Of a DNA stretch of 64,000 bases, positions 1 through 20,549 are shown in pieces. Each line of letters starts with the position of its first letter. Within the stretch, counting starts at the first letter, position 1. The translations under genes were made by a program, and so were the position numbers. The stretch is from a bacterium (GTDB lineage: Bacteria; Zhuqueibacterota; QNDG01; JAFGCO01). The DNA is taken from positions 5,901 through 69,900 of the forward strand of contig JAFGCO010000063.1 of the NCBI GenBank assembly GCA_016932575.1. The letters run 5' to 3'. The notes below the pieces were generated by a model. That model did no database searches and was not told the DNA's origin. It was given only the letters and a program-made list of their open reading frames with translations.

Positions 1-435
1 AGCAGCCCTCTGCAGGAATTTGAAGAACTTGACGGAGATCCGATTCAGGCCGATGCCTATTATACCCTTATTGAAGGCGGTGAAATTCAATTATTGTCCT
101 CACAAATGACAGAGGTTCAATCGAACAATAACCATGCAGGTGAATTTGAACTCTATCAGAATTTTCCCAATCCGTTCAATCCGGATACAAAAATAGCCTA
201 TCAGCTGCCCGAAGAAGCGGACGTGACGCTTAAAATTTATGATATGCAGGGCAGAGAGATTTGGAGACAGTTTAGAAAACATCAGTCCGCAGGTCATCAC
301 CGGATTGTCTGGAACGGATTGGATCGATTCGGAAACAGAGTGGCTTCAGGCGTGTATGTGTACAGAATTGAATTGAAGACCGGAGCGGAAAAAATGCGGT
401 ATATCAACGCCAGAAAATTGATTTTAATTAAATAA
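1..435 (+). CDS. Secreted protein, 3' part only (FlgD-Ig / T9SS-type C-terminal domain)
   Basis: Frame is open from base 1. Motifs LYQNFPNPFNP, WNGLDRFG and VASGVYVYRI, ending KLILIK. Confidence 0.85.
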   Translation, partial: SSPLQEFEELDGDPIQADAYYTLIEGGEIQLLSSQMTEVQSNNNHAGEFELYQNFPNPFNPDTKIAYQLPEEADVTLKIYDMQGREIWRQFRKHQSAGHHRIVWNGLDRFGNRVASGVYVYRIELKTGAEKMRYINARKLILIK

Positions 436-488
436 TGACAAATGGTATTTGTCTGCTGAGGATGTTAATGAATCAACGGGAGAGAATC

Positions 489-4735: not shown

Positions 4736-5629
4736 ATGAGACCCAATCATTATTGTTCCTTTTTAATTTTTATTATTTTGTGCGCTGTGCTGCGATCTTT
4801 GCATGGGCAAGGTATTACAGATTCAAAAGCAGATAAAGATAACCGCTCCGCCATTGTTGAAGTGGACGGATACGCCTATCTCTCCGAAGACAAGACCATC
4901 AAAGAAATCCGAGAGGAGGCTTTGAGCAATGCCAAGCGTATGGCTCTGGAACAAGCCCACACGTTTATCTCGAGTCAGTCCAAAGTGAAGAATTTTCAGC
5001 TCGAATATGATATTGTGATCAGTGAGGCGGAAGGTGCTGTCTGTGTGCTGGACAGCAAAGACCACGGCATTACAGACGATAACCGGTATCATACCTGGAT
5101 CAAGGCAGAGGTGACTTATTCGTTAAAACCGCCGGAAGGTAAAGCCGATCTGTCCGCAGAATTGGTGAAGAATCCGGACGCACCACTGACCGTTCATGTC
5201 TGGACAGAAAAATCCGAATATAAAGCCGGAGAACGGATCCGTGTCTTTTTACAGGGCAATAAGGATTTTTACGCGAGGGTGGTGTACCGGGATGTACAGG
5301 GAAATCTGCTTCAGATGCTGCCCAATCCACATCGCAGGGATAACTTTTTCAGGGGTGGCAAAGTGATCAGCATTCCCGGCAAGGGCGACCGGTTCGACCT
5401 GGAAGTCGGCCCGCCATTCGGCATCGAAAATATCATTGTGTATGCTTCCAGCGCCGAGATGGGGGATGCGGATGTCACCGCTGTGGGCAATGCCCTGTAC
5501 AGTGTACAGGACGATCTAAAAGCTTACGGAATGAAGACGCGGGGCGTGAAAATTGTTCAGAGTGAGGGAGATCGTTCCTCGGGTGCCGAGTTTTATGAAG
5601 CGAAGTGCGAGGTGAAGACGAGGATGTAA
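4736..5629 (+). CDS. Exported protein: FlgT-N/LPP20-like domain plus DUF4384-like domain
   Basis: Signal peptide; EEALSNAKRMALEQ helix; VHVWTEKSEYKAGERI...LPN...F.VGPPFGIENIIVYAS pattern typical of DUF4384. Confidence 0.65.
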   Translation: MRPNHYCSFLIFIILCAVLRSLHGQGITDSKADKDNRSAIVEVDGYAYLSEDKTIKEIREEALSNAKRMALEQAHTFISSQSKVKNFQLEYDIVISEAEGAVCVLDSKDHGITDDNRYHTWIKAEVTYSLKPPEGKADLSAELVKNPDAPLTVHVWTEKSEYKAGERIRVFLQGNKDFYARVVYRDVQGNLLQMLPNPHRRDNFFRGGKVISIPGKGDRFDLEVGPPFGIENIIVYASSAEMGDADVTAVGNALYSVQDDLKAYGMKTRGVKIVQSEGDRSSGAEFYEAKCEVKTRM

Positions 5630-5647
5630 AAACCGGGTTAGGGAAAA

Positions 5648-5796
5648 TAAGCAAGATACAAGAAGCAAGAATCAAGATTAAAGACTAAAGAAAAAGAACA
5701 AGGATAAAAATTATCAAAAATCCGAAATTCAAATCACGAAACCAAAAACCTTTTACCCTTTACCCTACTAATAGCTGAGGGCTGAATACTGACAGC
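5648..5796. repeat. Degenerate ~7-nt tandem repeats
   Basis: aagcaag-atacaag-aagcaag-aatcaag-attaaag-actaaag; tttaccc-tttaccc. Confidence 0.6.
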
Positions 5797-5830
5797 AATT
5801 CGAAATATCACACCTTTTAGGGCAAATTTT

Positions 5831-5860
5831 ACAAGTCACCACCTTAGGTGGTGGTCGTTG
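5831..5860. mobile_element. IS200/IS605-like terminal hairpin remnant
   Basis: acaagt-caccacc-tta-ggtggtg-gtcgttg resembles HUH-transposon end hairpins; no transposase nearby. Confidence 0.4.
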
Positions 5861-5880
5861 GCTTTTAATGATGAAGGAGT

Positions 5881-8800
5881 ATGATCATGAAATATCTCAA
5901 ATCACCTATTGGTCTTAAAGTCATTGGATTATTTTTGATTTTCTGTTTGGCAGTTCCTTTGTTGGCCCAGGAAACCATTCAGATTAAAGTTGAAAATTTA
6001 TTTGGAAGTACCGGATCCATGACTTACAGCCCGGATAAAAAATATGCCTTGAAAATTTTTCAAAGATCAGGAATATTAATTTGGAATTTGGAACAGGGAA
6101 AACTGGAACGCTTCACAGGCAATAAAGGACTGGACATCCGATTGATTACATTTAATCCTGATGGCAAAACATTTGTCACTTATAGTTCAATCACGGGAAT
6201 TGGAGGTGAGTTGCTGTGTTGGGATTTTAAGACAGGTAAAATCATTAAAGAATATCATTGTGATTTGGCATCTGTCAGAGAGATTGTTTTTTCAAGAGAT
6301 GGCAAGAAGATGCTTCTTCCCGGTGAGTACAGGTATGAAAATAATGTGAATGTAAGCTACAATGGATTACTGCTGATGGATGTGGAAACCGGAAATGTAC
6401 TTTTCCAAATAAAGGGTGGAGAGGGATGGTCCAGGAATCGGGGTTTAAGTCAGGCTGCCATACACCCGGATGGGAAACGGATTTTATTAGCAGATTCCGG
6501 CAATGAATTAAAACTGATCGATAGTGAATCGGGTAAGATTCTGCAGAATTTTCACGCGGATTTTGAGAACATAGAGGACGTTGTTATCACGGAAGATGGG
6601 AAATATGGAATTGTCACTTATTTAAGCGGGTCAACCCGTATTTGGGATTTGGAATCGTTTTTATGTGTTCGCACTTTGGTGAATCCCAAACATGCAGATT
6701 ATAAGGAAGGGAAAGAAATTGCCGCGGCTTCTGAGGTGGTTGTGAGTCCTGACGGGGAAAAGATATTAACGGAAAACTGGGATCACTATTTACGGCTTTG
6801 GGATATGAAATCAGGAGAACTCTTAAAGGAAATACGGACAAGTGACTATCCCAGTGATATTTCATTTTCTTCGGATGGTCGTCGAGTGACCTGTAATACA
6901 CATGGAATAGAATGTTGGGATCTGATATCCGGAATAAGAATTTTTAAAGCGGCCTTATTACAAGAGGGTGAGTGGGTGTTTGCCACTTATAAAGGATATT
7001 TTAATGGATCGGCCAATGCAAAAAAATTCATCAAAGCGGTGGTTAATGGAAAGGAAAAGAGTATTAATAAATATGTGTCGCATTATATGAGTCCGGATAA
7101 GGTTGTTGAAACTCTCAATGCGAAGGATGAAGAGACACGTTTGGCGTTTAAGAAAACGGATAAGCAAAGTAGTGATTCAGATGATCAATATGCCCAGTAT
7201 GCCCGCAGCCTGCCTGTGGATTTTGAGCCAGTCATTCAGCAGGGGCATTTGCAGGAGTGCAAGGTCTGGTTCGATCCTACGGGTCAGCGTGTGATCAGCA
7301 GTACCGGATTTGATGGAGAGATCAAAGTCTGGTCCTTAAAGACCGGGACCTTGTTAAAAACGTTTAACAAGCAGATGATCAATAAAGAATCCGTCGGCAC
7401 TGTCAGAGCGATCAGTCCCGATGGAAATTTGCTGGTTTCAAGTTTTCTAAAGGAAGTGCTGGTGTGGGATTTGGTCTCCTTTGAACTGTTGAAGACATTC
7501 AAGGTCACTGACTCTGATGAGGTAAAACAAGTTGCTTTCCATGCAAACGGGAAAGAAATTGTGACCGATGGATCGCGGATCTGGACTGCGAGAACAGGAG
7601 AATTTATCCGTATGGCGACAGGGGATGATGACTGGTTTCAACTGGACCGTCCCGATAGCGAAGCCACTATGGATAAAGATACACAAATTCTCACCTATGG
7701 TAACAAATCTCTGTGGACCGGATCGTTACCTTCAAAAGAACTGACTGACGCTTGTCAGGAACGGCGATTGAATATGAAATATTACGAGGATGGTCATATT
7801 TTGGCCTTCCCTGTAAATAACAGCATTTTTTTGGCTGATTTGAATACAGGTAAAATCCTTCGAAAGCTTGAGGGTAAGCACCCTGCAAGTGTTCCCTTTG
7901 GAGTACATCCTGACGGTAAATCTCTTCTTTTAAGCGGACGGGGCGGCCATGTTGATCTCTTGCCTTTCGAGACATTTCATTTCAAGTCAAGTCCAACCGG
8001 TTATCCCGACCAAATCGGTGAATTCGTTTTTGATCCCACGGGCCGTTTCATTGTATCCACCAGATCTCCCATTAAAATCTGGGATCGCCTGCAGAAGAAA
8101 TGGACTGGGACTATTCAACCGGAAGTTTATCCTCAAATATCAAAAGATCAGTGGCCTGACCATTTTCTTAAGGGATTTGATCCAAAAAATAATGGATTGG
8201 TGACATGTTATGAAGATAAAACGGATGCTTCCGAAGACAAATGGGATCCGAGAATGGTGAAGTGGTCTCTAGAAACCGGGAAAAAGCTCAGGACCGGCGG
8301 TAAAAACAGATACTACGGCACCGGGGGCCCATGGGCATCCGATCTTTCCGGTAAATATATGGCTACTGCTATGTATGAGGATATTGAGCTATGGAATGTT
8401 AATACGATGAGCAAAATTCATAGTGTAGACCTGCCCTGGCAATTTTCAAAATATTACGAAATGAAATCCTTTGCTTTTAATTCCACAGGAACCCTGTTTG
8501 CCGCTGGCGGTCAGGATGCCAAGATTCGGATCTGGACAACCCAGGGGAAAGGATCGGTTTTTAAGGGTAAGAATCCGCCGGTCAAGTATCTTCTCTCCGG
8601 GCATTGGTGGAGTGTTACAGCCATGGCTTTTGATCCCACAGGTCAAACGTTGGTTTCCGGTGATGCATTCGGAAATGTGATTCTCTGGGATATGAAAACC
8701 GGCAGTCAAAAGAAAAAGCTTTTGGGCCATTCAGGGATGATTTCACAAGTGGCCTTTTCTAAAGACGGTAACTATATTTTTACCCGCGGTGGGGCTGATG

Positions 8801-10233
8801 GTGTTCTCAATATGTGGCGGGCGGATAATTATGAGCGGGTTTCCATCCTCATTTCCGGGGAGGATTGGATCATGTTCACACCCGATGGTTTTTTTGATGC
8901 TTCCCGCAATGGGGGTGATCTTATTCGTCTACGAAAAGAATTAACCTCTTTTGGTGTGGATCAGTTTGCCCTGCGTACCAACCGTCCGGATATTATTATG
9001 AAGCGAATGGGAATCGGAAGTGAAGAAACGATTCAGCATTATTATGCCATGTTCCAGCGCCGCCTTCGCAGATCCGGATTTTCTGAGGAAAAATTGTCAG
9101 AGAAATTTGAAGTGCCGGAAGCAGAGATAATCAAAACACAGCAACAGGGTAAGTTTGTGAATCTCCAATTCCAATTAAAAGACGATTTATATAAAATACG
9201 ACGATACAATATTTTTATCAATGATGTGCCTCTGTTCGGCGGATATGGGAAAGAGGTGGATGGCAAACATATGAAAATTGACGAGAGAGTCGAGTTGACA
9301 TCCGGGGATAATAAAATTGAAGTCTCCTGTTTTAATGAGATTGGGGCTGAATCTTTCCGATCACTGGTTTCTGTTGAGTATAAAGAGGAGGTGATACCCC
9401 ATCTCTACTATCTCGGTTTCGGAGTTTCCCAATACCGCAAGGCGGATCTGAATCTCAATTACGCCCATAAAGACGCTTTGGATCTGGCCAAGGCATTTGA
9501 AGGCTATTCTGGTAGGTTCGGAAAAATCAATGTGAAGACGTTTACAGACGATCAGGTCACAGTCCAGAATATCAGGGATGCCAAAGCTTTCCTGAAAAAT
9601 GCCAGGGTGGATGATATTTTCATCCTCTTCATTGCCGGTCACGGTATGTACTCTCAAGGTGAAGATGCAACCTATTATTACCTGACATACAATGCGGATC
9701 CCATGAACCTATCCCAAACAGCAGCCAATTTCGATTTGATTGAAGATCTGTTGCAGGGCATAAAACCCCGTAAAAAGCTCTTTCTCATGGATACCTGCGA
9801 ATCCGGCGAGGTGGAAGAGGAAGCCCAAAATACTTTTTACGCCATGGCTGACGCCCGGGGCATCAAGGCACGCACCACAAGAGGTGTTGCCATCACACAG
9901 CGAAAAGAAAAATCCAAACGTTCTTACCTGTACCAGAAAGACCGGTTTATTTACAATGATCTGATACGCCGGTCCGGTGCCATTGTTTTTTCATCTTCCC
10001 GTGGCGGTGAGTTATCTTACGAGAGCGATGCGGTGCAGAACGGGTTGTTCACAGAGGAGATTATTAACTGTATCACCAAGGGTTACGGAGATATGAACCG
10101 GGACGGTGTAGTCACTACGGATGAACTCCGTGTTCATGTATCCAAAGCAGTGGCCCAGGCCACTGACAATGCCCAGCATCCCACGGTGGACAGGGATAAT
10201 ATTTATCAGAAATTTGGTTTCCCGGTGAAGTGA
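5881..10233 (+). CDS. Exported WD40-repeat protein with C-terminal caspase-like (peptidase C14) domain
   Basis: Signal peptide, many WD repeats, His/Cys dyad FIAGHG...MDTCESG, EF-hand-like DMNRDGVVTTDEL. Confidence 0.9.
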   Translation: MIMKYLKSPIGLKVIGLFLIFCLAVPLLAQETIQIKVENLFGSTGSMTYSPDKKYALKIFQRSGILIWNLEQGKLERFTGNKGLDIRLITFNPDGKTFVTYSSITGIGGELLCWDFKTGKIIKEYHCDLASVREIVFSRDGKKMLLPGEYRYENNVNVSYNGLLLMDVETGNVLFQIKGGEGWSRNRGLSQAAIHPDGKRILLADSGNELKLIDSESGKILQNFHADFENIEDVVITEDGKYGIVTYLSGSTRIWDLESFLCVRTLVNPKHADYKEGKEIAAASEVVVSPDGEKILTENWDHYLRLWDMKSGELLKEIRTSDYPSDISFSSDGRRVTCNTHGIECWDLISGIRIFKAALLQEGEWVFATYKGYFNGSANAKKFIKAVVNGKEKSINKYVSHYMSPDKVVETLNAKDEETRLAFKKTDKQSSDSDDQYAQYARSLPVDFEPVIQQGHLQECKVWFDPTGQRVISSTGFDGEIKVWSLKTGTLLKTFNKQMINKESVGTVRAISPDGNLLVSSFLKEVLVWDLVSFELLKTFKVTDSDEVKQVAFHANGKEIVTDGSRIWTARTGEFIRMATGDDDWFQLDRPDSEATMDKDTQILTYGNKSLWTGSLPSKELTDACQERRLNMKYYEDGHILAFPVNNSIFLADLNTGKILRKLEGKHPASVPFGVHPDGKSLLLSGRGGHVDLLPFETFHFKSSPTGYPDQIGEFVFDPTGRFIVSTRSPIKIWDRLQKKWTGTIQPEVYPQISKDQWPDHFLKGFDPKNNGLVTCYEDKTDASEDKWDPRMVKWSLETGKKLRTGGKNRYYGTGGPWASDLSGKYMATAMYEDIELWNVNTMSKIHSVDLPWQFSKYYEMKSFAFNSTGTLFAAGGQDAKIRIWTTQGKGSVFKGKNPPVKYLLSGHWWSVTAMAFDPTGQTLVSGDAFGNVILWDMKTGSQKKKLLGHSGMISQVAFSKDGNYIFTRGGADGVLNMWRADNYERVSILISGEDWIMFTPDGFFDASRNGGDLIRLRKELTSFGVDQFALRTNRPDIIMKRMGIGSEETIQHYYAMFQRRLRRSGFSEEKLSEKFEVPEAEIIKTQQQGKFVNLQFQLKDDLYKIRRYNIFINDVPLFGGYGKEVDGKHMKIDERVELTSGDNKIEVSCFNEIGAESFRSLVSVEYKEEVIPHLYYLGFGVSQYRKADLNLNYAHKDALDLAKAFEGYSGRFGKINVKTFTDDQVTVQNIRDAKAFLKNARVDDIFILFIAGHGMYSQGEDATYYYLTYNADPMNLSQTAANFDLIEDLLQGIKPRKKLFLMDTCESGEVEEEAQNTFYAMADARGIKARTTRGVAITQRKEKSKRSYLYQKDRFIYNDLIRRSGAIVFSSSRGGELSYESDAVQNGLFTEEIINCITKGYGDMNRDGVVTTDELRVHVSKAVAQATDNAQHPTVDRDNIYQKFGFPVK

Positions 10234-10272
10234 AACACACCTGTGGTTCTCTCAAGGGGGATAAAAAAGGCG

Positions 10273-10310
10273 AACCTCCCGATTCCCGATTAATCGAGAA
10301 TCGGGAGGTT
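10273..10310. repeat. Palindrome/hairpin (REP-like or terminator)
   Basis: aacctcccgattc-c-cgattaatcg-a-gaatcgggaggtt. Confidence 0.7.
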
Positions 10311-10329
10311 ATTCAAATAAAACAGATAG

Positions 10330-10409
10330 TGTCATCTCGAAGGAGTGAAGCGACTGAGAGATCTTAAAAACGCAAGGTTATAAGATCTCTCCCTTCGGTC
10401 GAGATGACA
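10330..10409. repeat. Dispersed palindromic element, copy 1
   Basis: tgtcatctcga...tcgagatgaca terminal inverted repeat with inner gagagatctta/taagatctctc stem; second copy at 19343-19430. Confidence 0.85.
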
Positions 10410-10447
10410 GTTTTGGATTTTATTAGAGTTTTGTGGAGATTAATCAC

Positions 10448-12529
10448 ATGCGAAAAATGATACTTTTATTTGGAATTCTTTTACTGATTCTCCCATGGAT
10501 TGCTTACGCCCAGGTGCAACCAATCGTCAATATTGGGCACAGTACGGGTTGGATTAATGACATTACCATTGATTCAGGTGGTCAGTATACCGCAACATGC
10601 TGTAAGGATCAGACGATTATGATCAGAGACCTGAAAACAGGAAAATTAATAAAAATTCTGAGCGGGGCAAAAGGAGAAATCCGGACGCTTATTTTTCATC
10701 CCAATGGGAAATATGTGATTGCGGGCAGCGGAGAAAATCCTCCCATACTGGTTTGGGATCTTGAAAGCGGTGAGCTTATCAGAAAGTTTAATCCTGAAAG
10801 GAATTCTGCTGTTGCGTTGGCTATGGACCCTGACGGCAAATACCTGGCTGCCGGAGGTTATATTTGGGAGTTTGAAACAGGCGCTATTATTCAGAAATTG
10901 GATATGAAAGTAGGAACTGTCTGGTCTCTTGCTTTTGATAAAACAGGAAAATCGATTATTGCCGGTGGCTATGGCATCAATGTCTTCAGTGTCAATACAG
11001 GGAAATTGATAAGGAATTTCTTTGAACGAAAATTCGCAAAAATTATTTCAATTGATCATCAGAACGAAACATTGATCGCTACTGTATCTGAAAGTGGTAT
11101 CTATCAAATGGATTTGAAAACAGGAGATCAACTGCATTTTATTCCCGATGATTCTGAGACTGCTTATTCTCCTAATAAAAACATCGTGGTTTATGGCCGA
11201 TATCCAATCATTTATGATTTGTCCCTGAAAAAAGAACTGTGTAAAATTGACTATGAGACCATTGGTCATATGGCCATCGATCCTGAGGGAGACATATTGG
11301 TGTCTACCGATGATGGTGCTTTTTGTTTAAAAGACGGTTCACAGTTGTATTCTTCTCCAAATTGTAATAAAGAGACCAACAGCATGGTTTACGATTCCAG
11401 GCAAAATGTGTTGGTTTGTGCCAGTAATATTAAAGACTGGAATGGATACAGACGGGTTGAAGTCTTGGACCTGGATTCAGGATTATTAAAAAATGCCATT
11501 CATTTTAACGAAGTAGGCTCATTGCAAAGCTTAATGATTGGCGCCAATGTATTGCCTGATGGAAAAAGAGTGGTTTCTGTGTTTGACAAGGGGAAAATCA
11601 CTTTATGGAATCTGGAAAATGGAGAGCCAATTATAACCTCATATCTTCGTGAAGAAAATGCGTATATGAATGGATCGAGTATGACATCGGATGGGAACTG
11701 TTTGTTCATGTATGGCGATTGGTGGTTGGCTTCCTGGAAAATAGGTCAGGATAATCAGCTATCCCTTATTAGCAGAGTCAATATTGAAGAGACCTATTGG
11801 AAAACAGCGGATTTAACCTCCAGCGGGAATTTTGTGGTGACCGGGAACCGGCAAAATCATAAGAAATATGATGAAGTGGTGACACTCTGGAAGTTTCCCT
11901 CCCTGAAAAAGTCTAAAACCCTAAAAGTGAACGCTCAGGGGTGGGATCCCCATCCTTTAGATCTGGAAGTGGATGAAAAGGAAACCTATATTATTGCTGC
12001 ATGTGAGGATTATAAAATTCGTGTTTGGGATTTTAAAAGTAAAAAACTGATTGTGACTCTGAGTTCAAATATTGATGGTTTGGTCACTTCGGTTACCATA
12101 GATCCACAGGCCAGGTATTTTGCAGCTGGGGGGAAGGAAGACGGAAATATCCGCATTCTCTCTCTTCCCTATGGGGATTTAATCCGGACATTGGAAGGTC
12201 CTGCTGATAAAATAAAAAATATGGTTTTTGTGAATAATGGAGAAATATTACTCGCTTCGGGTGAATTGCATCCTGATATTACAGTTTGGCGTGTCAATGA
12301 TGGTAAGCATTTAGCGACATTGTACTGGTTTGCTGATGCCTCGGTAACCATGACACCTGAAGGCTATTTTGCAGGGACTGGTAATTACAGGGATTATGTC
12401 CATTTTGTGAAAGGGATGAAAGTTTATCAGAATCAAGAATTGTATGATCACTATGATAGACCTGATTTAATGGGGGATGTACTGGCAGGAAAAGATATGC
12501 CTTATATGTGGGCGCCGGATGTGGAGTAA
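10448..12529 (+). CDS. Exported WD40-repeat protein without caspase domain
   Basis: Signal peptide MRKMILLFGILL, WD repeats; ends just after the TPEGYF...RPD cap motif. Confidence 0.88.
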   Translation: MRKMILLFGILLLILPWIAYAQVQPIVNIGHSTGWINDITIDSGGQYTATCCKDQTIMIRDLKTGKLIKILSGAKGEIRTLIFHPNGKYVIAGSGENPPILVWDLESGELIRKFNPERNSAVALAMDPDGKYLAAGGYIWEFETGAIIQKLDMKVGTVWSLAFDKTGKSIIAGGYGINVFSVNTGKLIRNFFERKFAKIISIDHQNETLIATVSESGIYQMDLKTGDQLHFIPDDSETAYSPNKNIVVYGRYPIIYDLSLKKELCKIDYETIGHMAIDPEGDILVSTDDGAFCLKDGSQLYSSPNCNKETNSMVYDSRQNVLVCASNIKDWNGYRRVEVLDLDSGLLKNAIHFNEVGSLQSLMIGANVLPDGKRVVSVFDKGKITLWNLENGEPIITSYLREENAYMNGSSMTSDGNCLFMYGDWWLASWKIGQDNQLSLISRVNIEETYWKTADLTSSGNFVVTGNRQNHKKYDEVVTLWKFPSLKKSKTLKVNAQGWDPHPLDLEVDEKETYIIAACEDYKIRVWDFKSKKLIVTLSSNIDGLVTSVTIDPQARYFAAGGKEDGNIRILSLPYGDLIRTLEGPADKIKNMVFVNNGEILLASGELHPDITVWRVNDGKHLATLYWFADASVTMTPEGYFAGTGNYRDYVHFVKGMKVYQNQELYDHYDRPDLMGDVLAGKDMPYMWAPDVE

Positions 12530-12618
12530 AAAAGAATTAAAAATTATGAATTATGAATTAAGAATTGGGGGGAAAGAAGCAGAAACAAGATTAAAGATTA
12601 GAGAAAAAGATAATAGAG

Positions 12619-12717
12619 CTCAAACCCCGGATGTTCGAGCGAAGCAAGATCTCCGGGTATTTGAGAATAGTCATGAAATTTCACACACCCGGGGACCTTC
12701 GGACACCCGGGGTGTGA
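12619..12717. repeat. Pair of related imperfect hairpins (REP-like)
   Basis: ctcaaaccccgga...tccgggtatttgag and tcacacacccggg...cccggggtgtga. Confidence 0.65.
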
Positions 12718-12800
12718 TAAAGATAAAGTCCCTAGATGCTGGTCAGTTGCTAACCGACAGCAGCCAAATTTACAATGCCATTGTATTATAATTTGGGAGG

Positions 12801-15689
12801 ATGATGATAATGAGAAAATGCATGATTCCTGTTTTTTTCTGCATCATTTCATATTCTCTTTGCTTCGGCTCTGAAAAACCTGAAATTTTTGTACAGATGG
12901 GGCATACAGAAGAAGTAGAAGCCATGGATTTAAGCCCCGATGGCAGATATGCTTTATCCGCGATACATAAGACAATCTATATATGGGAGGTTGAAACAGG
13001 GCGATTGGTGAACCTGTTTGACAAACATAAAGGATCGGTCAGATCAATCCAATTTAGTCCTGACGGAGAAAAGGTGTTATCTCTGGGTCAATATATCTAT
13101 TTGTGGGATTTTCATAGCAGAGAAGTCATTCATCTGTTTAAAGTAGAGGCCTTTAAAAAATTCTATTGTGCCTTTTTCAGCCCTGATGGTGATAAGATAT
13201 TGGCTCCCAATAACGAAGGTGACATGGCTCCGAAAGTCTGGGATGTCGAATCCGGGCAGGAATTAAAACCCTGGAAAGGCTATGAGGATGTGATGTCAAT
13301 ATATTATGATCCTGCCAGGAAATGGCTCATTACCAAATATAACCGCCAGATAAAGATAATGAATTGTGCAAGCAGACAAGTTATCCATTCATTTGATGAA
13401 CCTTTTTTCATACTGGATGTCTCACAAAATGACCAATTATTAAGACTGGATGGATTATGGGATATTGATACATGGAAGCAACTGCATAAACTTGAATTCA
13501 ATCGAAGTCAATTCCGTGACTTTAAAGGATATTCCACCGGATGTTTCAGCGCAGACGGAAACTCTATTATCCTGTGTGCGTCGGTAGGTTTTACAACTGG
13601 ACGTAATGCTGTCGTTCAAAATAAAGGTTATATTTTTGTATATGATGTGAATACGCTGGAACTCACAAGTGCTGTCCCTGTTCGTGATTGTGCAATTAGT
13701 CATATCAGGCCTGCATCTGATGGACGCCGTGTGCTTGTGAGCGGATATGGAAGGATGAATACCGGACTGATGCTCTTGGTGGACCTGAAAACGGGTCAGG
13801 TAGTGAGCCGTTTTGATGGTGCCAGTCATAAATCTCGAGCAATTTCCATCAGCTCCGATAGCCGATTGATGGCAACAGGCGGTGATGATGGGTTTATTCA
13901 TCTTTGGAGTCTGGAGAGTGGGCAGAAACTGAATAGCAAGGAAATGGTCCATCAATTCGGGATTTATATGATCAGTGATCTGGCTTTCTCATCTGACGGG
14001 AGTCAAATATTTTGGGATGCACTGGCTTCAAACTGGGGTTCATGGGATTTATACGAGAACAGTGAGATTCTTAAATATAAAAATAACAAGTTATTTGAAA
14101 AAAATCTAAAACAAAATCAGAAGTTGTTCAGATATCAAAGCCGTGTTGTGAATAAAAGAGAACGGAATGTAAAAAAAGGTTTAAAGCTTCAAGTATGGCC
14201 CCAGGATGTTTTAAGAATTAAATACACAAAAACCGAGAAAGAGACACTATTAAAACAATGGGGAGGCGTTTCTTGTGCACAATTTTATCCGGCCGGTGAT
14301 AAAATTATAACAGGAAGTCAGTCTGGTGCAACCATAAAACTCTGGGATGCAAAATCAGGCCAGGAGTTGGTAACCTTTTATGTCCTGCCTGATGGCGAAT
14401 GGGTATCCATGACGCCCGAGGGATATTTTAATGCGTCTGAAAACGGTTCAAAATATATTCACTGCAGGATTGGTGATAAACTCTACAGCATCGATCAGTT
14501 TTTCGAACAGTTCTACAGGCCGGATATTGTGGCCGAAGTACTGGAGAAAGGGAAACAGGCGCCCCAAATCGCAGAAATTCCCCAGGCGGATCCGGATAAA
14601 CTGGTCACTCTGGATAAACCAGTCAGGCTGCCGCCTGAGGTACGCATCGTTTCCCCCCATGTTGGGGATGTTTTCGAAAAGCAGGAAGTCGATGTCACGG
14701 TGGAGGTGAGGGATATGGGAGGCGGCATTGATGAAGTGCGCTTGTTTCAGAACGGCAAGTGGGTGGCCGGCGAAGAACGCGGCATACGGGTCACGCCTCA
14801 GTCGGATGTGCTCATAAAAACCTGTCGGCTTTTATTGCTGGAAGGAGAGAATCGAATCAGGGTTTTGGCTTTCAGCAGTGACCGTATTGAGAGCAATGCC
14901 GATAATATCACCATCCTGCTCAAGGGACCGGAGAGAACCACGGATTTGTGGCTGTTGACTGTGGGCATTAATGCCTATCAGAATTCAGCACTGAATCTGA
15001 ATTACGCCGAACCCGATGCACACGCGATTCATTCGTATTTTGAAACCAAAGCGGAAAAGCTGTTTCGATCCTTTCATCCGCTTGTCTGTTTAAATCAGCA
15101 GGCCACCAGACAGGGTATTCTGTCGCAGTTTGAAATGCTTGAATCCCGGAGCCGGCCGGAGGATCTGGTCATCGTCTATCTGGCCGGTCACGGTGATGCG
15201 CTTGGTGAGGAGTGGTACTTTATTCCTCATGATCTGGTTTATCCCGAGAATGGAGATCAGCTCAGGGCAACAGGCCTTTCAGCCTCTGAAATTTCGGACA
15301 TCATGACACGGATCAGGGCGCAGAAGATCCTGATGCTGGTGGATGCATGTAAATCAGGGCAGGTGCTGGTTGCTTTCCGCGGACTGACCGAACGTAAGGC
15401 CCTGCTGCAGCTGGCCCGTTCTTCGGGGACCTATGTGGTGGCAGCCACGACCAGTGAGCAACTGGCTACGGAGTTTCAGGAGCTCGGGCATGGTGTGTTT
15501 ACCTATACACTGCTGCAAGGGCTGAAGGGCGAAGCGGATGGAAGTCCCAAGGACGGACGGGTGACTGTTGAAGAGCTTTCTGCGTATATCAAGGGCACCC
15601 TGCCCGAATTGACGCAGAAATACCGGGGCCAGGCCCAGTATCCGACGAGCAAGGGAACAGGCATGGATTTTCCGCTGATGGTGGAGTAA
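12801..15689 (+). CDS. Exported WD40-repeat protein with Ig-like linker and caspase-like (C14) domain
   Basis: Signal peptide, VQMGH start, YLAGHG...VDACKSG dyad, GHGVFTYTLLQGL. Confidence 0.9.
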   Translation: MMIMRKCMIPVFFCIISYSLCFGSEKPEIFVQMGHTEEVEAMDLSPDGRYALSAIHKTIYIWEVETGRLVNLFDKHKGSVRSIQFSPDGEKVLSLGQYIYLWDFHSREVIHLFKVEAFKKFYCAFFSPDGDKILAPNNEGDMAPKVWDVESGQELKPWKGYEDVMSIYYDPARKWLITKYNRQIKIMNCASRQVIHSFDEPFFILDVSQNDQLLRLDGLWDIDTWKQLHKLEFNRSQFRDFKGYSTGCFSADGNSIILCASVGFTTGRNAVVQNKGYIFVYDVNTLELTSAVPVRDCAISHIRPASDGRRVLVSGYGRMNTGLMLLVDLKTGQVVSRFDGASHKSRAISISSDSRLMATGGDDGFIHLWSLESGQKLNSKEMVHQFGIYMISDLAFSSDGSQIFWDALASNWGSWDLYENSEILKYKNNKLFEKNLKQNQKLFRYQSRVVNKRERNVKKGLKLQVWPQDVLRIKYTKTEKETLLKQWGGVSCAQFYPAGDKIITGSQSGATIKLWDAKSGQELVTFYVLPDGEWVSMTPEGYFNASENGSKYIHCRIGDKLYSIDQFFEQFYRPDIVAEVLEKGKQAPQIAEIPQADPDKLVTLDKPVRLPPEVRIVSPHVGDVFEKQEVDVTVEVRDMGGGIDEVRLFQNGKWVAGEERGIRVTPQSDVLIKTCRLLLLEGENRIRVLAFSSDRIESNADNITILLKGPERTTDLWLLTVGINAYQNSALNLNYAEPDAHAIHSYFETKAEKLFRSFHPLVCLNQQATRQGILSQFEMLESRSRPEDLVIVYLAGHGDALGEEWYFIPHDLVYPENGDQLRATGLSASEISDIMTRIRAQKILMLVDACKSGQVLVAFRGLTERKALLQLARSSGTYVVAATTSEQLATEFQELGHGVFTYTLLQGLKGEADGSPKDGRVTVEELSAYIKGTLPELTQKYRGQAQYPTSKGTGMDFPLMVE

Positions 15690-15714
15690 ATCGTGAAATA
15701 AATGGGGGTGTCTG

Positions 15715-18700
15715 ATGTGTTTTAGAAAAATTTTGATCATCAGCCTTTTTATTTTTCAGATTGTCTGTGCAGGACAATCAATACCGGTTCATCGGGAAAA
15801 GGTTCCTTTTGATCTGGTTGTTCAACATGGTCACAGCGAGTTGGTGAAAAAGATGGCTATTGGACCGAATGGTCGTATAACAGTAACTGCCAGTGATGAT
15901 GGTACCATTAAACAATGGGATATTCAAACTGGCAAAATGTTGCGTACCTACATCGTGAATGAAAAGGAATTTTCTGCCTATGATGTGGTTATTGATCCAA
16001 AAGGGAAATACATCATTTCACCGGCGAGAAGAGAAAGTTATGAGTATTATCTAAAAAAATGGGATCTGAAAACAGGGAAGCTTTTATACCCTTTAAATCC
16101 TGATGGTATTGAATTTCAAAATGATATTGATCAAATAAGTATTTCCCCCGATGGAAATTTTATCATAATCTATAGTATTTCAAAGTACTTAAAGATATTA
16201 GACATTGAAACATGCAAATCCCTTTGGGAAATAGGGATGGACGATAAAACTAAAAATGTTTATGGTTTTTCAGTCGACCCAAGCGGACAATATATAATAA
16301 CTAACCTTTATCTTCATGGCAAGAAATCAATACAAATCAGAGAATTGGCGACAGGTAAACTATCTCATACAATAGAATCAAACATCGAAGAACTCAACAA
16401 TATTGATATTAAATTTGATCCCTCAGGCAAATACTTTATCGTTTCAGGTACAATAGATAGGTATCTTCCCGAAAATGACATATTATCCATTTCTGTATGG
16501 AATTTTCAAGATGTTAAAAGACTATATTCAATCGATTTGGAATTCGCCGGAAATGCGCCTGTTGTTTTTCACCCATCACAGGAAATGATGATTGTGCCTG
16601 ATGTAAAGAACAGTGAATTCATGGTAGTAGAAATCGGTAATGGAGAAGTGAAAAGAAAGTGGAAATACGAGAAGAAACTAAAGACGCTTTATTTCGATAA
16701 AAGTGGTCACTATTTGATGTCCAATTGTACCACTACCAGTAATCGGTATATGAGGCTTTGGGATTATACAACGGGTGATCTGTTAATAATATCCCCCATC
16801 CAAAATTATTATGATCCATTTGAGGAAGCTCTGTTTGATCCCACAGGAGAATACATCCTCTATAGAGGGAATAAATCGCTGACGGTAATTAGGTTGACAG
16901 ATCTTAAAATAATAAAACAAATAAGAATAATACCCGCATGGCTGCACCATATAGCAGCCAGAGACACCAGCGGTCAGTTTTTATATTCATATTTTACACC
17001 AGGACACGTCGGTGAAGATTTTTTGAATAAATGGGAATTGCCGTCTTTAAAAATGGTTAAAAGTATGAGATCAAGATGGTTTCGGACAGATCACCTTCCT
17101 GTTGATCCTGATGCAGAAACTGTATTCACATATGCTGAATTGTATGATTCTGCTCTGGTTTATAACCTGGAATCGGGAGAAATAGTGAAAAAATTGGGTG
17201 GAAACCTAAGGGAAAAGGGATCCTGGATAGGTGATGGTTTGGTAGAAGTCGATCCATTAGGTGAGTTTGTTTTCTGCGCATTTGAAGACCGTATTTATAA
17301 ATGGCATATTGATACGGGTGAATTGGTCAAGACGATAAAACTGCCCGAAAAAGTAAAAATTCCAGGTTATAAAAAACCACAGAAACGATATAACAATTGT
17401 CTCGCAATTGATCCGACGAGAAAATGGATTATACTCACATATTCAGATGTTATAGATATTTATAAGTTTAAATCAGGTAAATTACACAAAAGAATTTTTA
17501 CTTATTTTGAACCTGTTTCCCACTCCAACAATTGTCTTGCCATTGATCCTAATGGCGAATTTATTGTGACTTCTTCAGGATCCCACAATCTTCGATCATG
17601 GCGTTTAAACGATGGCCAAATCATGAATTCAAAATATTTTAAAGGATTTAGTTCTATCAAGCAAATGGCTATTGATTCATCTGGTCAATTACTTATTGCC
17701 GGACATGATGATGGCATTATTTCGATATGGGATGCAAATACACTCGAACATGTAAACACTAAATTTGAACATACAGATCTAATAGGATCGATTCTATTTA
17801 TACAAAATACAAATATCATGATTACAACAAGTGATGATCAAACAGCCAAAATGTGGAATTTAAATACATGGGAACATGTGACATTAATTGGTAATCAAGC
17901 AGGCTGGATTGTTTACACCCCAGACGGTTATTTCGACGCCTCCCCACATGGGGGTGATATGGTAGCTATGGTCAGTGGTTTGGAAGCCTTTGGTGTAGAC
18001 CAGTTCGCGGTGCGAAATAACCGGCCGGATATTATTCTCAAAAGGATGGGCATGGGCAGTCAGGAACTGATCGACCACTATTACGCCCAATACAAACGCC
18101 GTATCCGCCGATTAGGGATTACAGAAGAACAACTCAGCAGTGATCTGCACGTGCCCGAAGCGGAGATACTGGAATCCAAACAAGACGGAAAATTCGTTTC
18201 TGTTCGATTTGCATTGAATGATGACCAATACCCTATCAAACGCTACAATATTTATGTCAACGACGTCCCTCTCTTTGGAGGTTACGGAAAAGAGGTCTCC
18301 GGCCGTTCAGTCCAGAAAACCGAAAGTGTGGAACTCACAACCGGCACAAATAAAATCGAAGTGAGCTGTTTCAATACAGCAGGCGCGGAATCATTCCGGG
18401 CCATCACATATGCCGAGCATCAGGAAGAAGTGCAGCCGGATTTGTACTTCCTTGCTTTCGGCGTCTCCCAATATCAAAATTCCGATCTGAATTTGAGTTA
18501 TGCCCACAAAGATGCGCTGGATCTGGCAGACGCATTTCAGGGCTTGTCTGGCCAATTCGGAACGGTGAATGTCAAAACATACACAGACGATCAGGTCACT
18601 GTTCAGAATATCCAAAATGCAAAAGATTTCCTGAAAGGTGCCAAAACCGATGACATATTCGTGCTTTTTATCGCCGGTCACGGTATGTATTCTCAGGGTG

Positions 18701-19281
18701 ATGATGCCACCTACTACTACCTGACCCACAACACCGATATTGCCAATCTGTCCCAAACGGCAGCCGATTTTGATCTGATTGAGGGTCTGCTGCAGGGCAT
18801 CAAATCCAGAAAGAAGCTGTTTTTGATGGATACCTGCGAATCGGGTGAAATTGATGAGGAGAAACAGAGTACTTATTATGCGCTGGCAGATTCCAGAGGA
18901 ATCAAGGCCAGAACGTCCAGAGCCGTGGTGTTTAAGGAAAGAACCGAACAACACAAACGCTCGTATCTGTACCAGAAAGACCGGTACATCTACAACGATC
19001 TGATCCGCCGATCCGGAGCCATTGTATTTTCATCTTCACGTGGCGGCGAGTTTTCCTATGAGAGCGATGCTGTACAGAACGGGCTGTTTACCGAAGAAAT
19101 TCTTAAGTGTCTGACTGAGGGCGTTGGAGATTCGGATGGCAACGGAATCGTGTCCACCGATGAACTCCGGGATCATGTATCCAGAGCCGTAGCAGAATCC
19201 ACAGAAGACGCTCAGCATCCCACCGTGGACCGGGATAATATTTATCAGAAATTCGGATTTCCAGTGAGTAAAGAAAAATGA
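15715..19281 (+). CDS. Exported WD40-repeat protein with caspase-like (C14) domain; paralog of 5881-10233
   Basis: FIAGHG...MDTCESG; C-terminal part closely matches that of 5881-10233. Confidence 0.9.
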   Translation: MCFRKILIISLFIFQIVCAGQSIPVHREKVPFDLVVQHGHSELVKKMAIGPNGRITVTASDDGTIKQWDIQTGKMLRTYIVNEKEFSAYDVVIDPKGKYIISPARRESYEYYLKKWDLKTGKLLYPLNPDGIEFQNDIDQISISPDGNFIIIYSISKYLKILDIETCKSLWEIGMDDKTKNVYGFSVDPSGQYIITNLYLHGKKSIQIRELATGKLSHTIESNIEELNNIDIKFDPSGKYFIVSGTIDRYLPENDILSISVWNFQDVKRLYSIDLEFAGNAPVVFHPSQEMMIVPDVKNSEFMVVEIGNGEVKRKWKYEKKLKTLYFDKSGHYLMSNCTTTSNRYMRLWDYTTGDLLIISPIQNYYDPFEEALFDPTGEYILYRGNKSLTVIRLTDLKIIKQIRIIPAWLHHIAARDTSGQFLYSYFTPGHVGEDFLNKWELPSLKMVKSMRSRWFRTDHLPVDPDAETVFTYAELYDSALVYNLESGEIVKKLGGNLREKGSWIGDGLVEVDPLGEFVFCAFEDRIYKWHIDTGELVKTIKLPEKVKIPGYKKPQKRYNNCLAIDPTRKWIILTYSDVIDIYKFKSGKLHKRIFTYFEPVSHSNNCLAIDPNGEFIVTSSGSHNLRSWRLNDGQIMNSKYFKGFSSIKQMAIDSSGQLLIAGHDDGIISIWDANTLEHVNTKFEHTDLIGSILFIQNTNIMITTSDDQTAKMWNLNTWEHVTLIGNQAGWIVYTPDGYFDASPHGGDMVAMVSGLEAFGVDQFAVRNNRPDIILKRMGMGSQELIDHYYAQYKRRIRRLGITEEQLSSDLHVPEAEILESKQDGKFVSVRFALNDDQYPIKRYNIYVNDVPLFGGYGKEVSGRSVQKTESVELTTGTNKIEVSCFNTAGAESFRAITYAEHQEEVQPDLYFLAFGVSQYQNSDLNLSYAHKDALDLADAFQGLSGQFGTVNVKTYTDDQVTVQNIQNAKDFLKGAKTDDIFVLFIAGHGMYSQGDDATYYYLTHNTDIANLSQTAADFDLIEGLLQGIKSRKKLFLMDTCESGEIDEEKQSTYYALADSRGIKARTSRAVVFKERTEQHKRSYLYQKDRYIYNDLIRRSGAIVFSSSRGGEFSYESDAVQNGLFTEEILKCLTEGVGDSDGNGIVSTDELRDHVSRAVAESTEDAQHPTVDRDNIYQKFGFPVSKEK

Positions 19282-19334
19282 GAAACGGAGTTTCTCTGAA
19301 AAATCTCGTTCCCAAACCGGAGTTTGGGAACGAG
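19280..19334. repeat. REP-like double hairpin
   Basis: gagaaac-gga-gtttctc and ctcgttcccaaac-cgga-gtttgggaacgag. Confidence 0.75.
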
Positions 19335-19342
19335 GGGAATCG

Positions 19343-19430
19343 GTCATCTCGAAGGAGTCTACCAAGGGTGGACGACTGAGAGATCTGAAAATGCTTACCT
19401 TAAAAGAACTCTCGCTCCGCTCGAGATGAC
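19343..19430. repeat. Dispersed palindromic element, copy 2
   Basis: gtcatctcgaaggagt...cgactgagagatct...tcgagatgac, matching 10330-10409. Confidence 0.85.
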
Positions 19431-19571
19431 ACTTTTTATATAATACAAATGAATGCCATCTTGATTCCGATGTATCTGAAGAGAAATCTTTAAACAAAAA
19501 CAATACCTGTTTCGATGTCTTGTCAGCGGTTCTGAATTCCGGCGAAATCAAATGTGATATTCAAATCCATC

Positions 19572-20549
19572 TTATTTATTGAATCGCCGTATAAACTCCC
19601 TCGCTTTCACCCCCGATTCCGAAAGCTTATCCAAAGACCAGCCGCCTTTGGGATCCGCACCGGGTCTGAGAGCCGAACAGGTCTCCTGTTTATCCGAAAT
19701 CGACCATTTGACCCAGCTGATCTGATTTTTTCCCATCCAGTCGATCCAGAGATTCCATTCTTCCATATCCAGTTTATCCTGTCCGGATGAGTTGCAGCCG
19801 TCCGATTCAGAAACGAAAATAGGAATCCCTTTCGACAAAGCATAATCTCCCCGGTCTCTTAACCATTGCCGGTGAGTTACAGCGTAAAAATGCAAGGTAT
19901 ACATTAAATTTATATGTTCCCTGATCGGATCATCAGCCACAATATGCACATCCTGATCCCAGTGAGGATTTCCGATTAAAATAATATTGTCCGGATCATA
20001 CTGACGAATCGCTGTGATGAGTGTGTCAGAATAGGCTTTCACAAGGGCCCAATCCTGTCTGACAGGTTCATTATAAATTTCATAAATTATATTCGGATGC
20101 TCTCCATATGCCTTTGCCATGTCAATGAAGAAGGCTTTGGCTTCTTCTATATGATTTTCAGCGTGATGATCGTGCCAGTCGATGATCACATAAATTCCCT
20201 GGTCGATGCATGCTTCCACCACGGTTTTCATCAGGCCTTTGGCATGTTCCGGCATGTCCAGATAAGCGCTGTCCGGCTCAATGCCCATGGCTGCGCGAAG
20301 AACGGTAATCTTCCAATCATCCCGAAGCCATTTTACCGCATCCGCATTCCAGAATTTCGGCCACCAGTTATGCCAGCCCAAACTGACACCGCGCAGTACA
20401 ACCGGGTCGCCATTAGCATTCAACAGCCGGGTGCCTTTGACTGAAAGCCGGCCGTGCTGCTTGACAACCGACTTTTCATGGCAGAAGTTCAATATCAAAC
20501 CTCCGGTGATAAACAGTACTAAAAAGATAATGGGATAGTTATTTTTCAT
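19572..20549 (-). CDS. Glycoside hydrolase family 5 (endoglucanase-like)
   Basis: LRGVS, YVIIDWH, YEIYNEP (acid/base), LHFY, IFVSE (nucleophile). Confidence 0.92.
   Translation of the reverse strand: MKNNYPIIFLVLFITGGLILNFCHEKSVVKQHGRLSVKGTRLLNANGDPVVLRGVSLGWHNWWPKFWNADAVKWLRDDWKITVLRAAMGIEPDSAYLDMPEHAKGLMKTVVEACIDQGIYVIIDWHDHHAENHIEEAKAFFIDMAKAYGEHPNIIYEIYNEPVRQDWALVKAYSDTLITAIRQYDPDNIILIGNPHWDQDVHIVADDPIREHINLMYTLHFYAVTHRQWLRDRGDYALSKGIPIFVSESDGCNSSGQDKLDMEEWNLWIDWMGKNQISWVKWSISDKQETCSALRPGADPKGGWSLDKLSESGVKAREFIRRFNK

Follow-up and report, generated by a model that had tools for sequence, protein, structure and literature searches.

Organisation of the locus

We analysed a tandem array of genes for WD40-propeller proteins, three of which end in a caspase-like protease domain, on contig JAFGCO010000063.1 of the bacterial genome assembly GCA_016932575.1. 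The whole stretch of DNA that was analysed (64,000 nucleotides, positions 5,901 to 69,900 of the contig) is called the window, and positions are counted from its first letter. The source is a sediment-type bacterium, and its genome is 94.5% complete. The array consists of five co-oriented genes on the + strand at positions 4736-19281, in which a gene for a DUF4384 protein comes first and is followed by four genes for WD40-propeller proteins (Table 1). The original prediction, made from the letters of the DNA, had described the four co-oriented WD40 genes, three of them with intact His/Cys dyads and a DxxxDG-type loop near the C-terminus; all of these features are present, and g4736 joins them as a fifth, hitherto undescribed gene within the same interval. 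The WD40 profile scores of the four propeller proteins lie between 80 and 112 bits (cut-off 27). The intergenic gaps measure 199-271 nt among the first four genes and 25 nt between g12801 and g15715. For g10433, the ATG at 10448, which lies behind a GGAG and fits the 693-aa database entry, is more likely to be the start than the GTG at 10433. An open reading frame (ORF) of 104 aa at 12477-12791 takes up the gap between g10433 and g12801 and overlaps the former at its end; it is rich in K and E, of low complexity and without a Pfam match, and is probably not a gene.

Table 1 Genes and 3' flanking elements of the array. Positions refer to the window; signal peptides are predicted.
Feature	Position	Strand	Length	Description
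g4736	4736-5629	+	297 aa	Putatively exported DUF4384 protein: signal peptide; alpha/beta N-domain (aa 36-131); DUF4384 beta-sandwich (aa ~150-260); probably flexible loop with TRGVK (aa 268-272, nt 5537-5551); C-terminal strand
g5881	5881-10233	+	1450 aa	Double-unit WD40-caspase: signal peptide; propeller unit 1 with internal junction (aa ~30-410; junction aa 368); unit 2 (aa ~450-985); junction (aa 999); helix; Ig-like domain; C14 (His1254/Cys1306); EF-like loop (aa 1404)
g10433	10433-12529	+	698 aa from GTG 10433	Propeller-only member: signal peptide; ~14 WD40 blades; junction domain (aa 640); stop ~55 residues past the junction motif
g12801	12801-15689	+	962 aa	WD40-caspase, protease module of the second type: signal peptide; propeller (aa ~25-520); junction (aa 537); Big_7 Ig-like domain (aa 612-656); C14 (aa 719-949; His797/Cys850); degenerate DxxxDG loop (aa 914)
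g15715	15715-19281	+	1188 aa	WD40-caspase: signal peptide; AT-rich orphan propeller region (aa 23-719); junction (aa 734); helix; Ig-like sandwich; C14 (His989/Cys1041); R/K-rich linker of low model confidence with SRGIK (aa 1060); EF-like loop (aa 1139)
3' flank of g5881	10273-10411	+		GC-rich hairpin with 17-bp stem (10273-10310), then ~85-nt palindromic element
3' flank of g15715	19305-19445	+		Hairpin with 13-bp stem (19305-19334), then the same palindromic element

The protease modules

Peptidase_C14 (PF00656) was recognised in g5881, g12801 and g15715 with scores of 62.4, 47.2 and 66.6 bits, respectively (cut-off 21.4), and the Pfam scan gave no match to this family in g10433. The dyads sit in (A/S)GHG and D(T/A)CxSG motifs. 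In an alignment of 29 C-terminal modules (C-modules; aa 720-1188 in g15715), the catalytic His and Cys are both invariant (29/29 rows), and in an alignment of 75 rows the Cys (C322) is present in 75/75 and the His (H270) in at least 90%. For g15715 aa 720-1188, an AlphaFold2 model based on an alignment of 75 homologs reached a predicted local distance difference test score (pLDDT) of 87.8 and a predicted TM-score (pTM) of 0.88. It arranges the C-module as a beta/alpha junction domain with W-I-V-Y-TPDGYFDAS, a long helix, a seven-strand immunoglobulin (Ig)-like sandwich and a caspase-fold domain, and it places an R/K-rich linker of about 50 residues, modelled with low confidence, right behind the catalytic Cys. 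A Foldseek search of the PDB with this model yielded 322 matches at E ≤ 0.001, headed by MALT1 (3v4o, 5.8e-10) and GSU0716 (3bij, 9.1e-10), followed by the plant metacaspases 4 and 9 and caspases 9, 6 and 11. On the evidence of the model, the protease domains of the array have the caspase/hemoglobinase alpha-beta fold.

Sequence searches of the PDB gave two chance-level matches to ERp27 (E 0.2-0.27) with a single C-module and no match at E ≤ 0.01 with a profile of 29 C-modules; since no caspase was matched in this way, there is no residue-level alignment to a solved caspase. Two further residues show no variation in 75/75 rows, Asp214 of a KDA motif and Asp320 of a DxC motif; they may be the equivalents of the acidic S1 residues that confer Arg/Lys specificity on metacaspases, an assignment from motifs rather than from alignment to any solved chain. 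In g5881 and g15715, the DxxxDG-type loop matches the EF-hand pattern DxDxDGxIxxxE; in g12801 it has a degenerate form.

The C-modules of g5881 and g15715 are 69.7% identical over 465 aa. That of g12801 is 25-27% identical to those of g5881, g15715 and the fourth WD40-caspase gene of the genome, which lies outside the array. The C-module of this fourth gene is a different one as well; taken together, those two are 24-27% identical to the others. Thus, the idea of conserved proteases put forward in the original prediction holds for g5881 and g15715 and does not extend to g12801 (25-26% against those two), and the common proteolytic output that it had proposed is not supported, as the array holds two unrelated types of protease module that are ~25% identical.

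Propellers, junction domains and composition breaks

Compared along their length in windows of 30 aa, g5881 and g15715 show identities of 0.5-0.9 that fall sharply to 0.13-0.30 upstream of aa ~985 and 720, respectively, and the best match between their propellers covers 583 aa at 19.9% identity (49.7 bits, compared to self-scores of 1479-2029). The closely matching C-termini and poorly alignable propellers that had been noticed by eye were therefore borne out. Among all WD40-caspase genes of the genome, the best high-scoring segment pairs between propellers have 20-39% identity over 44-583 aa and 29-67 bits at self-scores above 1000, and no two propellers exceed generic WD40 similarity. In the module shared by g5881 and g15715, third-codon identity is 0.3-0.67; this points to an old duplication and rules out a recent gene conversion.

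The same picture was obtained with proteins from other genomes. The ortholog of g5881 in the related genome G018 (P0008) is 68.6% identical to it in the C-module and 41.5% in the N-part (1045 aa). For g15715, the C-module and propeller identities are 76.8% and 22% with G028a and 69.5% and 21.6% (over 245 aa) with P0007; with P0006, the C-module is 70.7% identical and the propeller gives no match. In a maximum-likelihood tree of C-modules, the seven proteins of this group form one clade (100/99), in which g5881 and P0008 are sisters (100/99). For the family as a whole, we compared 103 proteins with a long enough N-part and C-part, taken from 119 listed homologs plus the copies of the genome; propeller similarity was expressed as normalised BLAST scores, as propellers of ~20% identity with internal repeats are not reliably alignable for a tree. 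A recognisably related propeller was kept by only 44% of the 16 pairs whose C-modules are at least 80% identical, and the reverse case is represented by P0035/P0061 (propeller 80%, C-module 71%). Throughout the family, the similarity of the propellers does not follow that of the proteases; the incongruence implied by the proposal of variable sensors on a constant protease was thus found, and congruence was not.

Each propeller unit is closed by a small conserved junction domain, W-x-x-x-TP(D/E)GYF, whose strict motif occurs in these four genes only among the 2647 ORFs of the genome with 200 aa or more. It is found also within g5881 (aa 368), where it aligns to the junction of g12801, and at the end of g10433, whose junction is 33% identical to that of g12801 over 94 aa. 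Past aa 368 of g5881, the sequence restarts like a mature N-terminus (EPVIQQGH), and g5881 looks like a fusion of a propeller-only unit of the g10433 kind to a WD40-caspase. If so, the fusion is old, since the ortholog P0008 aligns over the whole length. No protease remnant was detected past the stop of g10433 (12301-12900) and no close relative of this protein was found, the best non-self matches reaching 19-24% identity over more than half of the query. The propeller of g15715 likewise has no close relative: a search of 1.84 billion representatives gave generic multi-stretch WD40 matches only.

The joints between the modules also coincide with breaks in G+C content at third codon positions (GC3), which has a genome-wide mean of 0.454 (standard deviation 0.067). 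The best split of g15715 lies at codon 729 (0.298-0.300 versus 0.503-0.511), that of g12801 at codon 560 (0.375 versus 0.596) and that of g5881 at codon 437, the fusion point (0.366 versus 0.474), close to the module joints at 720, 523 and ~410-450, respectively. These splits rank 3, 4 and 13 among the 206 ORFs of at least 900 aa in the genome. As six homologs in related genomes differ by at most 0.07 between modules, the break is not a built-in property of the family, and we read it as evidence that propeller cassettes may have been imported.

Export signals and likely location

Export signals were called by a hydrophobicity heuristic on the N-termini (n-region, h-region, small residues at -3/-1). 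All five array proteins have a K/R start, a hydrophobic run of 10-15 residues and a small-residue site such as AYA|Q or VCA|G; the means of the runs on the Kyte-Doolittle scale (12 aa) are 2.3-3.4, and no other 19-aa window exceeds 1.8, so that no other transmembrane-like segment was seen. A lipobox Cys is lacking at the signal sites of all five. By this heuristic, all five would carry Sec signal peptides of the signal peptidase I type. The same holds for hydrophobic N-terminal signals in all five C14 genes of the genome (the three of the array and one each on contigs C2 and C50), and a hydrophobic N-terminal run is present in 106/119 listed homologs and in 51/64 5'-complete metagenome homologs, the exceptions looking mostly truncated or over-extended.

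The C14 domain reaches to 6-13 aa from the stop and leaves no room for a C-terminal domain of the type IX secretion system (T9SS); a Por_Secre_tail/T9SS sorting domain was not among the best 25 Pfam families listed for each large array protein. The upstream neighbours at 1-435 and 435-3986 carry such a domain. The latter is a T9SS cargo protein of 1183 aa with Kre9/KNH-like and Big_7 Ig repeats, a cohesin-like stretch and Por_Secre_tail, which indicates that the organism uses type IX secretion. Because the array proteins end inside the caspase domain without a T9SS sorting domain, unlike 435-3986, the periplasm is the likelier location. Of the periplasmic or extracellular repertoire envisaged in the original prediction, the export signals are thus supported by the heuristic in the array and in most homologs, and the periplasmic placement stands; the extracellular one is disfavoured.

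The DUF4384 protein

The first gene of the array, g4736, matches PF14326 with 77.2 bits (cut-off 27), and no second DUF4384 match was seen in the genome. Homologs number at least 130 and are 39-80% identical; PF14326 is present in all 120 that were listed. In one homologous protein (P0023) the DUF4384 partner is fused ahead of a WD40-caspase and the whole mature g4736 is matched at 41%, and in another (P0076) the DUF4384 half is matched at 46% in the same arrangement. At loci with a match to the whole partner, a C14 gene adjoins in 4/5, with several C14 architectures. By our reading of the matches in the order, 21 of the 24 to DUF4384 have a C14 match no more than 4 kb away on their contig, and all 14 DUF4384-positive genomes are also C14-positive. 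These fusions and adjacencies suggest that g4736 is a dedicated partner of C14 proteases.

The AlphaFold2 model of g4736 (pLDDT 86.0, pTM 0.77; low confidence at aa 271-280) gave no match in the PDB at E ≤ 0.001. The best matches, which fell short of this threshold, were GbpA (1.5e-3) and the macroglobulin (MG) domain of alpha2-macroglobulin (2p9r, 6.1e-3, target TM-score 0.51), and an MG-like sandwich may be taken as a lead only; the same applies to the best named cluster for the N-domain in the ESM Atlas, FlgT_N, whose score of 0.80 is under the mark of 0.9. The loop of the partner at aa 268-272 has T in 40, R in 48, G in 44, I/V in 45 and K in 24 of 48 rows. At positions 341-345 of the protease linker, the counts in 75 rows are S 38, R 58 (R or K 66), G 69, I/L 60 and K 43. 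A motif [ST]RG[ILV]K is thus common to the partner loop and the protease linker, both of which are of low confidence in the models and are probably flexible. Prediction of a complex between partner aa 31-297 and the C-module returned a score of 0.00 and no answer, which is evidence neither way. Because of the fusions, the adjacency, the shared motif and the precedent of DUF4384 in Csx30 (see below), we infer that g4736 may be a substrate, a bait-like regulator or an anchor of the array proteases.

Relatives and distribution of the family

A search with the C-module at E ≤ 1e-10 gave a match in 7/30 related genomes of the same order, and this type of C-module was found only in two of the 30, G028 and G018. 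The locus of G028 has a DUF4384 partner followed by two tandem genes and that of G018 a DUF4384 partner followed by one gene, the ortholog of g5881. The one genome of the same family (92% complete) gave no match with the C-module query and one C14 match. In the order, the number of C14 copies per genome ranges from 0 to 5. Among 80 metagenome loci, 27 have at least 4 kb on both sides, and 3 of these hold another C14 gene at a distance of up to 4 kb. Since relatives and metagenome loci rarely hold tandem copies, the four-gene array is an unusual local expansion. Its content is not invariant among relatives, which have 1, 2 or 4 genes or none, in agreement with what had been expected of a variable repertoire. 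The family itself is widespread, with 911 database matches at E ≤ 0.001; the C-module is 49-71% identical in proteins named from KSB1, Delongbacteria, Spirochaetales, Planctomycetota, Elusimicrobia and Bacteroidales, and the database name of the members is 'caspase family protein'. Among 37 pattern matches on viral contigs, none was confirmed as a relative.

Further C14 genes were noticed in the course of this comparison. The fourth WD40-caspase of the genome (C2:12006-17983, L035; 1151 aa) has a variant junction, WISWAPNGYFHGS, and its start overlaps the end of a gene for an exported protein of 841 aa with TPR repeats and a weak TraF_2-like match, a possible envelope partner. The gene at C50:3805-5637 (L036; 610 aa, GC3 0.27-0.30) codes for a signal peptide, an N-terminal C14 domain (64.4 bits) and a C-terminal FGE-sulfatase domain (199.1 bits); C14/FGE-sulfatase genes of this kind adjoin DUF4384 partners at two loci (L028, L029) of deltaproteobacterial metagenome-assembled genomes. 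In G018, the DUF4384 partner is directly preceded by a C14 gene of 765 aa (contig C112, L022, 7034-9331; PF00656 score 151 bits) and is therefore flanked by two different caspase genes. WD40-caspases of 957-977 aa resembling g12801 were found in three genomes of one genus, in another conserved cluster (L023, G016:C242; L024, G011:C135; L025, G005:C27). In these clusters, two small exported or lipoprotein-like genes lie upstream together with two further small genes that, judged by eye, may be a sigma/anti-sigma pair, and two exported proteins of ~500 aa, one with a weak DUF4384 match, are encoded downstream.

Flanking elements and neighbouring genes

Both paralogs with the conserved C-module, g5881 and g15715, are followed by a GC-rich hairpin and then by a palindromic element of ~85-100 nt with the ends GTCATCTCGA...TCGAGATGAC and a T run. 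The two 3' flanks align with each other and belong to a repeat family (D12, 95% over 19 nt); that of g5881 folds as RNA with -35 kcal/mol (z = -4.9). Rfam gave no match at E ≤ 0.1 between 4000 and 20000. The arrangement could be a pair of terminators, a 3' regulatory RNA or a small mobile element. Two other repeats were observed: a purine-rich sequence of 30 nt occurs upstream of g5881 (5668-5697) and of g12801 (12581-12610) with 90% identity, and short intergenic pieces of the array recur at a few other sites of the genome.

The neighbours of the array are housekeeping or hydrolytic genes, among them a GH5 cellulase downstream (19572-20549). Neither an NTPase/STAND, EACC1 or gasdermin domain nor a toxin, Cas gene or other known defence gene was found in the array proteins or in the ORFs of the first 26 kb of the window (1-26 kb). 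PADLOC defined no system and matched g12801 only, with a generic caspase model. A reverse transcriptase (RVT_1) was not matched in the genome, which is 94.5% complete; this speaks against receptors diversified by a diversity-generating retroelement.

Interpretation

We propose that the array is a lineage-specific tandem expansion within a widespread, uncharacterised family of Sec-exported, most likely periplasmic, C14 proteases that are built of exchangeable modules and act with a DUF4384 partner, and we give this reading a probability of about 0.55. In the mechanism that we suggest, the exported propeller would dock a protein or envelope ligand that differs between the paralogs. The protease would probably be Ca2+-dependent and Arg/Lys-specific like metacaspases, would be self-processed in the linker at SRG(I/L)K, and would cut, or be checked by, the TRG(I/V)K loop of the DUF4384 partner, which would thus serve as substrate, bait-like regulator or anchor. 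The protein g10433 would be a protease-less recognition subunit or a decoy, and new specificities would arise by swapping of propeller cassettes at the junction domain. The physiological role may be defence, envelope surveillance or protein foraging.

Several points weigh against this proposal. Export was called by a hydrophobicity heuristic, and the Arg/Lys specificity and the Ca2+ dependence are suggested by equivalences of motifs. The five-residue motif of partner loop and linker was noticed post hoc and may be of chance or structural origin; the linker of g12801 offers no more than FRGLT, and in the C2 gene there is no counterpart at all. A partner-like gene lies near metagenome C-module loci with enough flank in only 6/47 cases upstream and 4/56 downstream. 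Furthermore, the two largest GC3 breaks of the genome belong to other modular exported proteins, namely a hybrid two-component sensor (C43:56659-61065) with Reg_prop propellers at a GC3 of 0.339 versus 0.615 in the kinase/receiver/HTH part, and a T9SS protein with CBM9 and CARDB (C27:478-4230). In this genome, modules for sensing or binding seem as a rule to be richer in A+T than catalytic ones. In view of these two proteins, a difference between fast and slow modules could contribute, and the GC3 breaks of the array may reflect a general difference in selection rather than the import of cassettes.

The alternative that survives best, and that we nevertheless hold to be unlikely, is a periplasmic innate-immunity or conflict repertoire, in which propellers sense molecules of phages, bacteriocins or predators and binding switches on the caspase for defence or suicide. 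Patchiness, expansion, orphan domains, mosaic composition and cross-phylum spread are typical of conflict genes, and all of them are met with here: the genes are patchily distributed in the order, C14 genes have expanded to 5 in this lineage, the propellers are orphan and fast-replaced, the composition is mosaic, and the C-module is conserved across proteins named from several phyla. The frequency of WD40 repeats in prokaryotic C14 proteins fits as well, WD40 being the commonest accessory domain (73/671 sequences) in a survey (PMC3501461, Asplund-Samuelsson et al. 2012). Against this stand the lack of a known defence gene in the array proteins and the ORFs at 1-26 kb, the scores of 65-76 for the conflict-system caspase model NF047832 at a cut-off of 140, the generic caspase hit as the sole match of PADLOC, the viral-contig result (0/37) and the missing reverse transcriptase; moreover, latency of the protease until a ligand binds is conjectural.

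Next in rank, and doubtful too, comes an explanation by accessory digestive or processing peptidases of a polymer-degrading bacterium, with the propellers as substrate filters or docking platforms in the manner of prolyl oligopeptidase, DPP-IV or tricorn; each paralog would deal with other imported or envelope proteins. It would suit the exported hydrolytic surroundings (the T9SS cargo protein at 435-3986 and the GH5 cellulase), the fact that most family members are single genes without a defence context, and the gingipains, exported clan-CD proteases with Arg/Lys specificity and Ig-like domains that serve nutrition. However, the array proteins have no T9SS sorting domain and would not be surface-secreted like known foraging proteases, no peptide transporter or peptidase operon is adjacent, and the conservation of the C-module across phyla, including linker and junction, together with a dedicated partner suggests a specific regulated interaction, for which bulk digestion would have no need.

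A far-reaching version of the immune idea seems improbable to us: an extracytoplasmic, innate-immune-like repertoire in which interchangeable propellers would watch the periplasm for foreign proteins, and ligand and Ca2+ together would release a constant metacaspase-type module that cuts the partner at its bait-like TRG(I/V)K loop for envelope defence or suicide, with propeller cassettes imported at the junction domain to gain new specificities. We give very little credit to the idea that the array consists of decaying duplicates, with g10433 a truncated pseudogene and the propellers diverging under relaxed selection. It would account for the absence of a protease and of close homologs in g10433, for the low GC3 of the propeller parts and for the one in-frame TAA in a six-frame match to the second tandem copy of G028. 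But all four WD40 ORFs are long and uninterrupted (698-1450 aa) with high WD40 scores, g10433 ends cleanly behind a complete junction domain with no remnant downstream, and unit 1 of g5881 has the same layout of propeller and junction, conserved in the ortholog P0008. Least credible of all are uncleaved N-terminal segments that would leave the proteins cytoplasmic or membrane-anchored, with the protease inside, like classical WD40 orthocaspases: hydrophobicity alone cannot separate a signal peptide from an N-terminal anchor, and such segments were scored as transmembrane helices, possibly signal peptides, in PMC3501461, but all five proteins have a positive n-region, a short h-region and small residues at -1/-3, the first WD40 blade ('QxGH' motif) begins within ~10 residues past the predicted site family-wide, and with an N-in anchor the protein would in any case lie wholly outside the cytoplasm.

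Returning to our proposal of an expanded family of exported, modular proteases, its meaning lies first in the location: where bacterial homologs of caspases are discussed, it is mostly as effectors of suicide or defence in the cytoplasm, and here all five copies of a genome appear built for export. The locus is also a natural experiment in module exchange, with the same protease on unrelated propellers and composition breaks at the joints, and it offers a candidate for a dedicated partner or substrate with a conserved Arg loop as well as a protease-less member of the family. Should the propellers indeed be sensors, the array would amount to a modular system of receptors and proteases outside the cytoplasm; should they not be, it would stand for a new class of envelope proteases whose targeting domains are exchangeable.

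Comparison with known systems

Exported proteins of the WD40-C14 kind are already known under generic annotations; what is new in detail is the arrangement in tandem, the mosaic character of the joints, the occurrence of propeller-only and fused forms, and the matching loop of the partner. Known exported relatives in a wider sense are the gingipains, Arg/Lys-specific proteases of clan CD (C25) from the same superphylum with Ig-like domains, a T9SS sorting domain and a nutritional role; the array proteases belong to another family and are without the T9SS sorting domain. In prolyl oligopeptidase, DPP-IV and tricorn, all of them serine peptidases, beta-propellers select access to the active site. 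The array proteases differ from these, too, in protease family, and a placement of their propellers over the active site is conjectural.

The EACC1-associated caspases (NF047832), which reportedly belong to NTP-dependent conflict systems, are the best NCBIfam match of all three array proteases, with 65.5, 75.6 and 70.9 bits. They resemble the array in joining repeat-domain sensors to a caspase effector. Since these scores are far under the cut-off of 140 and no NTPase or EACC1 domain is fused or adjacent, membership in this family was rejected; in addition, the array proteins are predicted to be exported rather than cytoplasmic. In structure, the best matches are GSU0716 of Geobacter sulfurreducens (3BIJ) and the MALT1 paracaspase (3V4O), with target TM-scores of 0.63-0.70. 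Identity to these is only 15-17%, with no match to solved chains at the level of sequence, and the array proteases add the R/K-rich linker of ~50 residues past the Cys and the EF-hand-like loop.

With regard to the partner, the type III-E Craspase is the closest parallel, as it likewise pairs a protease of clan-CD type with a DUF4384 protein. There, DUF4384 ends one of seven groups of Csx30, the substrate of the caspase-like Csx29, and is said to be often fused to protease domains (bioRxiv 10.1101/2022.08.17.504292). Csx30 is cleaved in a flexible linker and Craspase is cytoplasmic and RNA-guided with a CHAT protease, unlike the array, which has no Cas genes; cleavage of g4736, by contrast to that of Csx30, is suggested by the shared motif only.

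In overall design, the array stands nearest to the metacaspase-like or orthocaspase WD40 proteins (MEROPS C14; PMC3501461, PMC5756287), which have the same caspase fold with a His/Cys dyad. PMC3501461 also holds N-terminal hydrophobic segments to be probable signal peptides, discusses an extracellular role, and mentions several paralogs per genome and domain swapping among prokaryotic metacaspase-like proteins. Our literature search, which left out supplements (those of PMC3501461 may list proteins with signal, WD40 and C14), found no paper on the biochemistry, the arrays or the partner. Compared with the WD40 orthocaspases, the array proteins have the WD40 part N-terminal and the protease C-terminal, are without a NACHT or other NTPase domain, and have their parts linked by the junction domain and the Ig-like sandwich; the copies of the array, moreover, are all predicted to be exported, stand in tandem and are headed by a DUF4384 protein.

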